Source: Podarcis gaigeae
Lineage: Eukaryota
NCBI GenBank assembly: GCA_964106915.2
Contig: OZ066919.1
Reading direction: 5' to 3' (one strand)
Length of the DNA stretch: 64,000 nucleotides
The notes below the pieces were generated by a model that was not told where the DNA came from, ran no database searches, and worked only from the letters and a program-made list of their open reading frames with translations. Positions 19,308-59,040 of this stretch are shown one piece after another. Made by a program: the position numbers and the translations under genes. Every line of letters starts with the position of its first letter. Position 1 is the first letter of the stretch.

Positions 19308-20014
19308 CAGTGGTGCCTCGCAAGACGAAATTAATTCGTTCCGCAAGTTTTTTCTTCTTGCGAGTTTTTCGTCTTGCGAAGCACGGTTTCCCCTAGGAAT
19401 GCATTGAAAATCAATCAATGGGTTCCTATGGAAACCGCCTTCAGACCAGGTCCGGGGACAGTCTGTCCCCGACCTCTTCTGAAGGCTGGGGGGGGGGGGA
19501 CACAAGGGCTTTTCTTCCCACCCCCAGCATTTTAAAAAACCCCGGGACAGCGGAGGACTTCTCCGCTGTCCGGGGCGATCTTAAAATGCTGGCGGGCGGC
19601 AGCGAAGCCTTCGCTGCCGCCCGCCAGCATTTTAAAAAACCCCGGGACCTCTTCTGAAGGCCGGCGGGGGGCGAAAGTCTTTGCTCCCCCCTGCCTGCCT
19701 TCCCGGGAGAGTGGAGAAACGCAGCGTGTTTCTCCGCTATCCCGGACGGCTTTTGAAGGCAGGCGGGGGGGGAGCAAAGACTTTCGCCCCCCGCCGGCCT
19801 TCAGAAGAGGTCCAGGACCTCTTCTGAAGGCTGGCGGGGGGCAAAAGTCTTTGTCCCCCCTGCCTGCCTTCCCGGGGGCTTTTAAATTGCCCCGGGACAG
19901 CGGAGAAGTCCTCCGCTGTCCCGGGGTTTTTTAAAATGCTGGCGGGCGGGTTTTCCGTCTTGCGTTTTGCGGGTTTTCTGTCTTGCGAGGCATTCGTCTT
20001 GCGGGGCACCACTG
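19308..20014. mobile_element. Large GC-rich Tigger-type non-autonomous element with internal inverted repeats
   Basis: TIRs CAGTGGTGCCTCGCAAGACGAA / TTCGTCTTGCGGGGCACCACTG, TA on the left side, CpG-rich. Confidence 0.85.
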
Positions 20015-28655: not shown

Positions 28656-28892
28656 ATGATGTGTGAGGTAATGCCTACCATCAGCGAGAGTGACCCCTTG
28701 GGGTCACAGCCGGGCTCTGATTCTGATGCCAACTTTGAACAGCTGATGGTGAATATGCTTGATGAGAGAGACAAGCTGCTAGAGACTCTTCGGGAAACAC
28801 GTGAGACTCTGTCTGTGACTCAGGGCCGGCTACAGGAGACCGTGCATGAGAGAGACCAGCTGCAGAGGCAACTGAACTCTGCTTTACCTCAG
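28656..28892 (+). CDS. PPFIA4: Liprin-alpha-4 coding exon 1 (79 aa)
   Basis: gccATG start; MMCEVMPTISESDPLGSQPGSDSDANFEQLMVNMLDERDKLL...NSALPQ; donor CAG|gtaaga. Confidence 0.95.
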
Positions 28893-48252: not shown

Positions 48253-48546
<294 letters not shown>

Positions 48547-49191
48547 TAGCTTCAGCAAAACCAGCTATTTATAACCCACAACCTTTAAGTTCCTGGTCTC
48601 TAACGGCCCAAAGTATTGCTTTTGGTCAGTGCTAGCTTGCAGATCTCCCATCAACTTTCTGGTTATGAGTAATTTCCAGCCTGAGCCAATCATTTGCCCT
48701 TTGAAGAATGGTCTCAAAAATTACTGCTTTGCATCCTAGAAATATGTTAGCAGGATTGAATCTGTGCCAATGCTCCTTTGAAGGAGTATTCTAGCCTTCC
48801 ACTCTCCCAACCCCAGTTCAGCAATACACCCAGTGATATTGTTATATGGTGTTAGTGTAGTAGCTCTTCCAAGTCAGGCAGATCTCTGCTGAGATCCTTT
48901 TACGCTTATTCTAATTAGCAGGTTAACTCAAGATTCCAGGCTTTAGCCCACTTCATCATACCTAGTGTTTCTTGTTGCTTGCAAATCTAGCTGAGATGCT
49001 GTTCTTCTGGAGCCACGTACTGTTCTTTTGTGCCCTTTCACGTGATGAGGGGAGTGTGGTTTAATTGAATTATCTGTGTTCTGAACTAGATGTCCTGATG
49101 ATTGGGAGCAGGGGTGGTGGTGGTAGGCCACAAACTGCTTGAAGGGCTGTGTATCAACTCGGCCTTTGAAAATATTTTTTTTTCTTTTCAG

Positions 49192-49266
49192 GTGAGAGAG
49201 CGCTTACGGGCAGCACTGGAACGAGTAGCTACACTAGAGGAACAGCTTTCTAGTGCTCACCAACAG
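49192..49266 (+). CDS. PPFIA4: Liprin-alpha-4 coding exon 4 (25 aa)
   Basis: ttttcag|VRERLRAALERVATLEEQLSSAHQQ|gtaaat. Confidence 0.95.
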
Positions 49267-50181
49267 GTAAATATTGGGTTTCAGATTGTACTGTGGATTT
49301 CACAGAGGTGAAATCAAAGAAACTAAGACTGATTGCAGAAAAAAATGTATCTGCAGCACTATGTGACATGCGATCTTTATAATTTTGTTTCAGTTGTTGG
49401 ACTTGTGACACAAACTCCTGTATATTTCTCTCATATTTTCTTTAGACAAGAATCCCTTTTTAAATATTCCTCTAAAGCTATTTTATACTGATATAAGGAA
49501 TTTTGGTAACAACCAAGGTAAACTTGAAGCGATTGTTATGAGAGATTATTAAAATAATTGTGGAAAGCTACCCAGGCTACATGGGGTTTTGTAAATGGAA
49601 AAAAACAAAAAATGTACAGGAAGGGGGAGGAAGGACCAGTTGCTAAGAAGCACACATTGCAGCAGCAAACATATGTCGAGAGAATATTGCAAGGGGGGGG
49701 GGGGTCAAAAAAATTGCTGTAAGTAATGTGACCAGGTAGCAGAAAGAAAAAAAAATATGTTACAAGATTAAAGGTGAAAGGAAGATACAGGATACACCCC
49801 TGCATGTCACAGACCGGATGAGCTCATACCTCATGGCTTCTACTTAAAAAACATAATTGGACACATTAAATGTATTCATGCTTTTACAATATTGTGTGGT
49901 TGGGCCCTTACTTTCCAGGCTGGTCTTACACAAAAAGAAGTCAAATTACCTGTTACAGTGGCAGTTACCTCTGCTCCCACACTAAGTTATTGAATCACTT
50001 TGCATAGTAAAAATCCTGGCTTTTACAGAACTCTCCTTCATAAACATGTGCAACGACAGCTTCTTAACAGTGACAGCAACAATAGAAGGTGGACAAGAAG
50101 CTCTCTGCATGTTCTGCATTCTTATTTTTCACACTTAAGGAAACCTTAAGTACAAGTGTATATTTAAAATGTATTTTGCAG

Positions 50182-50283
50182 GTAAGTGCTCTTCAGCAAG
50201 GCCCCTCCCAGAGGGAAGCACCTGTAGGAGAAGATGATAAAAGGACTGAGGGAAAAGAATCTGGGCAGAAGCTACTTTGGAAG
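50182..50283 (+). CDS. PPFIA4: Liprin-alpha-4 coding exon 5 (34 aa)
   Basis: tttgcag|VSALQQGPSQREAPVGEDDKRTEGKESGQKLLWK|gtgaga. Confidence 0.9.
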
Positions 50284-50672
50284 GTGAGAGCCATCCTTCT
50301 TGGAAGTGGAGAGTATCTAATGTAATATTGAAGTACTATGGTCATTCAATCAAAGGTACAAAATGGGAACCCTTTGCTTACTGATAAATTTTATCTTCCC
50401 TTACCATTTTTAAACTCTGCAATAATAGGCCTGTTGAATAAATGTCCAGTGGCAAGTTACAGCTACCTCAAAATGCCCCCTTTTCAGAAAAGACCAGTGT
50501 TACAGTAGCAGTCTAGCATCTCTTGCATACTATTAGAAAGAAGAAAAACTGATAGTTCATTTGGTGAGCTAACGTATTGAAATGTTGCTCAGTGGCCTTT
50601 GTTTGGTACTGTGTTTGACTGGGTAGTGCATATTCCTTGGAAACATAGTTCTTTGTTATATGACTTTCACAG

Positions 50673-50894
50673 AGACTTCCTAATGGCTCTATACATCCGG
50701 ATGATGAGGCAAGCCGGACTGTGGAACTGCAGGAACTTCTAGAGAAGCAAAACTTTGAGGTAGCGCAAGCTAAAGAACGAATAGCTGCTTTGGCTGCCAG
50801 TGTTGCTGAGCTAGAAGAAGATCTAAGTACAGCCAGGAGGGACCTAATCAAATCAGAAGAAATGAGCGGCAAGTACCAGAGGGACCTAAGAGAG
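50673..50894 (+). CDS. PPFIA4: Liprin-alpha-4 coding exon 6 (74 aa)
   Basis: ttcacag|RLPNGSIHPDDEASRTVELQELLEKQNFEV...KYQRDLRE|gtgaga. Confidence 0.92.
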
Positions 50895-51200
50895 GTGAGA
50901 GAGTTCTGTTCCAGCAGCATAAACTATGTTATCAAGAGAATCTCTGAAGCAACTTTAAAAGCCATCTTATTTTTTCCAGGTGTAGCAAAAATAAAATAGT
51001 CTGAGCATCTGCTTGCAGAAAGTTATTGCTGTTTCTAGCAGTGAGCTTAGTTATTCAGTGTCAAAGTAAAAAAAAAAAATACCTATCATAACTGGAGATT
51101 TGTGACCCTGCCTTCTCTCAGTTTGCCCAGATAATTAATTGGGCTTTCAGTGTTCTAGTAGAATACTTTGGGGTGGGGGGAACAGTTTTTCAGGTGAGTA

Positions 51201-51458
51201 CAGTGGTACCTTGGGTTACATACGCTTCAGGTTACATACGCTTCAGGTTACATACGCTTCAGGTTACAGACTCCACTAACCCAGAAATAATACCTCGGGT
51301 TAAGAACTTTGCTTCAGGATGAGAACAGAAATTGTGCGGGGGTGGCACGGCAGCAGCAAGAGGCCCCATTAGCTAATGTGGTGCTTCAGGTTAAGAACAG
51401 TTTCAGGTTAAGAACGGACCTCTGGAACGAATTAAGTACGTAACCAGAGATACCACTG
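51201..51458. mobile_element. Tigger-type MITE, copy E
   Basis: TA-flanked TIRs; three tandem 16-bp ggttacatacgcttca units. Confidence 0.88.
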
Positions 51459-51982
51459 TACTCTAAAAGTACAATTACCATTTTCCTGCCACTTTCCCTT
51501 CCTTGCCAGCTCTCTACTTCATCAAGCCAAAAACCCTGGGGAAGAGAAAGACATGACAGATAGTGGGAGGTTTCTCAACAACACAGGAAAGGCCTTGTGG
51601 TTGCAAATGATGCATAGAGCATTATTTCTTGCAATCATGAGGTTTGACTGTGGTGGGAGCCTTTACCACCATTGGCCTTGTCCCTCAAGTTATGGTTGTT
51701 TTGAGGGGCAAAGATAGATGAGGCTGTTGGGCAGGACTAGAGAGTGGTGGAGGCAACTGTGAGCCCAACTTTCATTTGGAATCAGCTTAAATGGTTCCAA
51801 TACAACCTTTCAAAATGGGGCAGCTTATTACTGCAGAGAGAGTTTGCATTTTGAGCTTCAGTGTAGTACCTCAATAGTCATAACAAGCCCTTCTCATGCT
51901 GTGGTTCAGGCAGATTTTTCTATCACCATGAGGGCCATACAACCACAAAGTTCGTGACTTTCTTCATGGCTCATCCTACCAG

Positions 51983-58977: not shown

Positions 58978-59040
58978 AACACATTATTACAAGAACTGGA
59001 AAATACCCAAAAACAAATAGAGGAGCAGCAGCATGACAAG
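58978..59040 (+). CDS. PPFIA4: Liprin-alpha-4 coding exon 11 (21 aa)
   Basis: ttttaag|NTLLQELENTQKQIEEQQHDK|gtaaat. Confidence 0.9.

Follow-up and report, generated by a model that had tools for sequence, protein, structure and literature searches.

The closest described relatives of the two exons reported here are the annotated recursive-splicing (RS) exons of Blazquez et al. (2018; PMC6224609), including those of KPNA1, MRPL3 and EGLN1; where such an annotated exon joins the one before it, a GT donor is rebuilt. Putative RS-exons make up 3.6% of human exons and occur in 21.7% of genes, and 93.8% of them are constitutive; the strength threshold applied in human is a MaxEntScan score of 5.52, which 90% of real donors reach (PMC6224609). 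The share of RS-exons is similar in all deuterostomes examined, and the authors ascribe their frequency to GT being the commonest exon start and to the resemblance of exon ends to donors (PMC6224609). Work in human and mouse has established the exon junction complex (EJC) as a repressor of rebuilt donors (PMC6224609; PMC7355637), as an earlier first-pass annotation of the present locus had assumed. [quoted passage not shown] When an RS-5ss was strengthened in reporters, skipping occurred even with the EJC present (PMC6224609).

Exons 4 and 5 of the lizard gene PPFIA4 are two new putative members of this large class, as the first-pass annotation had recognized: each has a rebuilt GT donor where it joins the preceding exon, which is the sequence definition of a putative RS-exon (PMC6224609). 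Like the published examples, they are coding exons with a GT start and a rebuilt site of donor strength, and yet they are included. They differ in that EJC sensitivity has been shown for a minority of the published exons, whereas the lizard pair consists of two such exons side by side, known from sequence. Both exons are included in every transcript assembly examined, and we consider it likely that their donor-like starts are incidental valine codons after phase-0 introns, silenced by the EJC.

Cryptic RS-exons and ratchet points (CADM2; Drosophila) offer a second comparison and are normally removed (PMC6224609). They share with our locus an acceptor that is directly followed by a donor motif, which in the exon 5 pre-mRNA reads cag/GTAAGT (slashes mark exon boundaries; lowercase letters are intronic). 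Cryptic RS-exons and ratchet points sit in very long introns. The lizard exons, by contrast, are coding and kept, and the introns around them are 389–915 nt long. A third parallel is DMD under EJC knockdown, where one or two neighbouring exons are lost, likely by re-splicing according to the authors (PMC10957711); this loss was seen under knockdown only, is termed mis-splicing there and is described by them as hard to tell from regular skipping. A search for papers linking PPFIA4 or liprin with recursive splicing or the EJC returned none among the matches listed, subscription journals being outside its scope, and no PPFIA gene name appears in five supplementary files of PMC6224609, which apparently do not hold the full list of 6,837 exons.

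Gene context and exon layout

The stretch analyzed here (the window) comprises 64,000 nt of the genome of Podarcis gaigeae (contig OZ066919.1 of assembly GCA_964106915.2). Its best protein matches and the liprin-alpha order of the encoded domains indicate that the host gene of the donor-like exon starts is the orthologue of PPFIA4 (liprin-alpha4), a synapse-scaffold gene, in this lacertid lizard. The genome contains four matches to exon 3, one for each liprin-alpha paralogue. From the start codon at 28656, the exons could be traced through neighbouring stretches as far as the C-terminus; exon numbers count coding exons. The features of the region, all on the + strand, are as follows.

48355..48519, +, coding exon 3: ends in AAG (Lys); donor AAG/gtaagg; start approximate to a few bases; contig pieces at 48354-48517
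48520..49191, +, intron 3: 672 nt, phase 0; strong acceptor pyrimidine tract (15/17 positions)
49192..49266, +, coding exon 4, a putative RS-exon: 75 nt, residues 169-193; starts GTGAGA (Val-Arg); donor CAG/gtaaat; in H3 of coiled coil CC1
49267..50181, +, intron 4: 915 nt, phase 0; donor CAG/gtaaat; weak acceptor tract (9/17 pyrimidines, median 12)
50182..50283, +, coding exon 5, a putative RS-exon: 102 nt, residues 194-227; starts GTAAGT (Val-Ser); donor AAG/gtgaga
50284..50672, +, intron 5: 389 nt, phase 0
50673..50894, +, coding exon 6: 74 aa with 100% identity to Podarcis muralis liprin-alpha-4

The junctions at introns 3, 4 and 5 are all phase 0, with GT..AG joints confirmed in 8/8 transcript assemblies, and both exon 4 and exon 5 preserve the frame, as had been claimed. 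Exon 5 encodes the end of H3 and a variable linker. The two ends of intron 4 (49264-49270 and 50179-50185) share 7 letters, and aligners are consequently unable to place the joint within 7 nt.

Elsewhere in the window, a patch of GC-rich nested inverted repeats with arms of up to 77 nt occupies 19465-19949, upstream of the first coding exon; it is likely a small non-autonomous transposon-derived element. Intron 6 contains a highly repeated interspersed element (51197-51463) that includes 3.4 tandem copies of a 16-nt unit and is matched by thousands of contigs. A search of the window against Rfam gave 0 matches.

Strength of the rebuilt donor sites

The motifs and coordinates originally given for exons 3–6 are correct: exon 3 ends in AAG, exon 4 begins with GTGAGA and exon 5 with GTAAGT. 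The exon 3–4 junction, AAG/GTGAGA, indeed carries the same letters as the native donor of exon 5, AAG/gtgaga. We scored these sites with a weight matrix that stands in for MaxEntScan. It was built from the 63 donors that we mapped in the liprin-alpha genes of this genome; the 63 junctions come from four paralogues (25, 15, 14 and 9), with unresolved junctions left out. Native liprin-alpha donors, scored by leave-one-out, have a 10th percentile of 4.32 and a median of 8.79 (n=63). The scores of individual rebuilt and native sites were taken from the full matrix. As the native donors form part of it and it is biased toward the many AAG exon ends of the family, these scores are a rough guide.

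On this scale, the rebuilt sites of exons 4 and 5 score 10.27 and 12.08, above the 10th percentile of 4.32 that substitutes for the published strength threshold, and the site that an exon 3–exon 5 junction would rebuild scores 12.54. The exon 5 site stands at the 95th percentile of the donor range of the 63-donor matrix and, in agreement with the first-pass annotation, is stronger than the exon's own donor (12.08 versus 10.27). The corresponding statement for exon 4, that its rebuilt site is as good as its own donor, holds by the matrix, which puts the two near parity (10.27 versus 10.66), but not by a count of matches to an 11-nt U1-complementary consensus, which favours the native donor (10 versus 6 plus 1 wobble). 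For exon 5, the same count gives 9 matches for the rebuilt site versus 6 plus wobble for the native donor. Sequence proxies suggest that in exon 4 both the acceptor and the native donor are strong, whereas in exon 5 the acceptor is weak and the native donor weaker.

The exon 5 donor motif had been described as created by splicing, which is not so. Because the acceptor ends in CAG, the unspliced RNA already reads cag/GTAAGT, with the same nine letters, and splicing at the exon 5 start merely removes the overlap between donor motif and acceptor. We considered whether this site might serve as a donor before splicing and rejected the idea, because intron 4 would then be retained and none of the contigs covers it.

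Chance expectation for rebuilt donors

By our own calculation, which assumes independence, a human-sized exon set is expected to hold ~246 adjacent pairs of RS-exons, and the probability that such a pair occurs in a gene with 27 pairs of neighbouring exons is 0.03. Among the liprin-alpha junctions, 45/63 are phase 0, 8/63 start with GT and 5/63 rebuild a site at least as strong as the median donor; rebuilt donors are not clearly above chance in this family. Given the encoded residues, and with codon usage taken from 2,182 liprin codons, a site of median strength arises with a probability of 0.43 at Lys/Val-Arg and 0.25 at Gln/Val-Ser, jointly 0.11, such that both sites would be strong about 1 time in 9. 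The codons of the exon 5 start had been presented as one of 24 options for Val-Ser. This is true of the exact hexamer GTAAGT, which has a probability of 0.04 by local codon usage, but three other codon pairs are nearly as good, and 4/24 pairs reach the median donor (probability 0.25). The sequence YAGGTRAG occurs 11 times in the window versus 9.25 expected and is not enriched.

Exons 4 and 5 are included in lizard transcripts

Inclusion was assessed in 8 of 18 presumed-RNA runs (6 studies, 4 organisms) by means of assembled contigs rather than raw reads. In 8/8 runs a single contig passes through exons 3–6; its joints are GT..AG, and it leaves the introns of this region uncovered. Among the joints listed in the 8/8 assemblies, none skips exon 4 or exon 5; assembled contigs drop minor isoforms. 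As a control, we used an exon at 58978-59040 (63 nt) that is absent from Podarcis muralis RefSeq isoform X5 (P0132). It too showed inclusion joints alone among those listed, in four runs, and the assembly test therefore gave no sign of power for minor forms. Inclusion of exons 4 and 5 is the main form in lizard PPFIA4, which does not imply that skipping is absent.

We also compared 285 protein sequences, 19 of which lack the exon 3 end motif, leaving 266 that were counted. Exon 5 is missing from 57/266, a number inflated by a search that used the exon 4–6 junction as query, and most of these entries are fish, salamander or PPFIA2 proteins. Among P0141-P0227 (fish, salamander), a set enriched by this query, most PPFIA4 models have no exon 5, the exon having been either lost or missed. 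Five amniote PPFIA4 proteins are without it (P0001 of Podarcis muralis, P0007, P0138, P0139 and P0140). RefSeq isoforms of this kind come from a barbet (P0140) and a caecilian (P0143, 1/8 isoforms, in an animal whose exon 5 starts with Val-Arg). From these sequences, a liprin-alpha4 protein without exon 5 looks tolerated. We considered P0001 as evidence for re-splicing and discarded it, as the Podarcis PPFIA2 model P0179 also omits exon 5, which in that gene starts with ATT.

These models raise the alternative, in our judgement unlikely, that exon 5 is a minor cassette across vertebrate liprin-alpha genes, dropped through failure of exon definition, to which the lacertid rebuilt donor may add some leak without being needed. 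The models themselves do not need a rebuilt donor, because exon 5 starts with ATT in PPFIA2 and with Val-Ala in birds: four PPFIA2 models (P0179, P0182, P0170 and P0183) and three bird proteins (P0138-P0140) are nonetheless without it. One of the four, the frog protein P0183, stands beside P0274 and P0276 of the same frog, which contain exon 5, and the low pyrimidine content of the lizard exon 5 acceptor (9/17) also fits a cassette. However, exon 5 is present, whole or partial, in every RefSeq isoform listed for squamates, turtles and crocodilians, the eight assemblies list no skip joint, and many of the entries without exon 5 are automatic gene models, in which a divergent exon may have been missed.

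Two other variants concern acceptors. Turtle isoform P0251 lacks the first five residues of exon 5, which implies an alternative acceptor; an in-frame CAG 15 nt into the lizard exon, at 50194-50196, fits it, but this acceptor was not seen in the lizard contigs. In isoforms P0236, P0238, P0240 and P0253 (monotreme, hawksbill turtle), exon 6 is short of its first 10-13 residues (50673-50710 in the window), which points to an alternative acceptor inside that exon.

Turnover of the exon 5 motif

To follow the exon 5 start, we took one protein per named species; one of the 24 squamates has a model without exon 5, leaving 23, and as the species are related the tallies are not independent events. In these 23 squamates the exon begins with VN (12), VS (5), IS (4) or IN (2), and in 21 other non-bird tetrapods with VT (15), VS (4), VR (1) or LA (1); in birds, properly modelled exons have VA or VT. 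No Ile codon begins with GT, and an Asn codon supplies no G at +5. Deduced in this way, the +1 G is lost in 6/23 squamates, all with Ile, and the +5 G in 14/23; GT is absent in geckos, Anolis and Pogona. GTAAGT can be encoded in 5/23. These proteins and the four paralogues give an indirect view of the synonymous variation that the first-pass annotation had named as a test. The 12 Val-Asn species could have a usable donor if their codons were GTA/GTG-AAT, whereas no codon pair for Val-Thr or Val-Ala reaches the median donor score.

The PPFIA2 equivalent of exon 5 begins with ATTCTA, and candidate equivalents from an exon scan begin with TTAATG and TCTCTT in the other two paralogues. The first letters GTAA are kept in all eight transcript runs, which represent close relatives and in which 7 letters fit both sides of the joint. 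A pattern scan for orthologous DNA in metagenome contigs gave 594 pattern matches and 0 confirmed loci. Conservation of the motif beyond what the protein needs, the mark of a selected element, is seen neither at exon 5, as deduced from residues, nor at exon 4, as judged from four paralogues.

The same residues could be read as signs that a strong exon 5 site is mildly harmful and that squamate lineages tend to lose it, through Val to Ile at the +1 G and Ser to Asn at the +5 G. At least one of the two Gs is gone, by residue, in 18/23 squamate species. Ile occurs in squamates, which have Ser or Asn as residue 2. It occurs in none of the turtles, crocodilians and birds examined; their second residue is mostly Thr or Ala, which rules out a strong site. 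Yet both changes are common conservative transitions in an exon with only 19/34 invariant columns, and the counts rest on residues of related species; we regard this reading as very improbable. Incidental valine codons silenced by the EJC, our preferred explanation, are compatible with a motif that comes and goes.

Exon 4 is constrained as protein

Val-Arg follows the exon 3 end in 264/266 proteins. Because Lys/Val-Arg is invariant, the exon 4 motif is largely dictated by the protein. The paralogous exons, at loci named by sequence likeness, begin with GTAAGG in PPFIA2 and PPFIA1 and with GTTCGA in PPFIA3; the codons therefore vary while the residues stay constant. The rebuilt donors of the PPFIA2 (L005:5493, G000:C21) and PPFIA1 (L007, G000:C1) equivalents stand at the 98th percentile and are stronger than that of PPFIA4. 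A strong exon 4 donor is thus rebuilt in three of four paralogues, the PPFIA3 site being weak, an outcome that has a probability of 0.22 given Val-Arg.

The first-pass annotation had placed the removable residues in a linker. This is not borne out for exon 4, all 25 residues of which align to positions 34-58 of the 78-residue chain in the crystal structure PDB 7D2E, the H3 segment of liprin-alpha2. The structure is that of a paralogue; our search found none for liprin-alpha4 H3. According to a review, CC1 is the most conserved liprin region, and its H2 and H3 drive self-assembly (PMC8044993). Loss of exon 4 would cut this self-assembly segment. Exon 4 has 20/25 invariant columns among the 23 squamates, no protein of the 266 lacks exon 4 alone, and 1/266 lacks both exons (P0042, a GenBank model named 'hypothetical protein').

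Incidental donors or a regulated switch

We sought to weigh our preferred reading against the first-pass proposal of a selected, EJC-tuned recursive-splicing cascade, a physiological switch deleting 25, 34 or 59 residues. The cascade has in its favour that both rebuilt sites and the exon 3–5 site are strong, that both exons keep the frame and that three of four paralogues rebuild a strong exon 4 donor. In addition, EJC mRNA is lower in brain and muscle (PMC6224609), where liprin-alpha4 is expressed (PMC13311821). However, the paralogue pattern is unremarkable given Val-Arg (probability 0.22), exon 4 lies within H3 in the most conserved liprin region, and an exon-4-only deletion is seen in 0/266 proteins. 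[quoted passage not shown] With no skip joint in 8/8 assemblies (a test of low power), an exon 5 motif that is not conserved and an exon 4 motif dictated by the protein, we find a selected switch highly improbable.

We considered a more specific version, in which stepwise re-splicing in lacertid brain or muscle, tissues with possibly low EJC levels, removes exon 5, and sometimes exon 4, to yield a short liprin-alpha4 with clipped H3 and linker and altered assembly of the active-zone scaffold, the exon 4 donor of PPFIA1, PPFIA2 and PPFIA4 serving as a family-wide control point. We would give this scenario only a slim chance.

On the incidental reading, which we prefer, removal of introns 3 and 4 would place an EJC upstream of each new junction. 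The EJC, with RNPS1/PNN, would block the rebuilt donor and the exon's own donor would be used, a sequence of events carried over to the lizard from human and mouse work. Of the two exons, exon 5 would be the likelier to leak under EJC depletion, its rebuilt site being stronger than its native donor, and our analysis makes it a fair candidate for skipping under EJC knockdown. Any skipping upon EJC loss would then be an error mode rather than a selected switch. The weak acceptor and shorter downstream intron of exon 5 speak against upstream-first splicing, the order that EJC-sensitive exons favour. Counting against our preferred explanation as a whole are the position of the exon 5 site at the 95th percentile, above the exon's own donor, the reporters in which a strengthened RS-5ss gave skipping despite the EJC (PMC6224609), the usable donor that Val-Asn species may still have, and the 57/266 proteins without exon 5.

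Putative RS-exons number thousands per vertebrate genome, and two more matter little as such. PPFIA4 nevertheless provides a natural test case, as related lizards and snakes differ at exactly +1 and +5 of the exon 5 site; because they do, exon 5 skipping can be compared between species with and without the rebuilt donor. A regulated cascade, were one shown, would tie the dosage of the EJC to the part of a presynaptic scaffold that drives its self-assembly.
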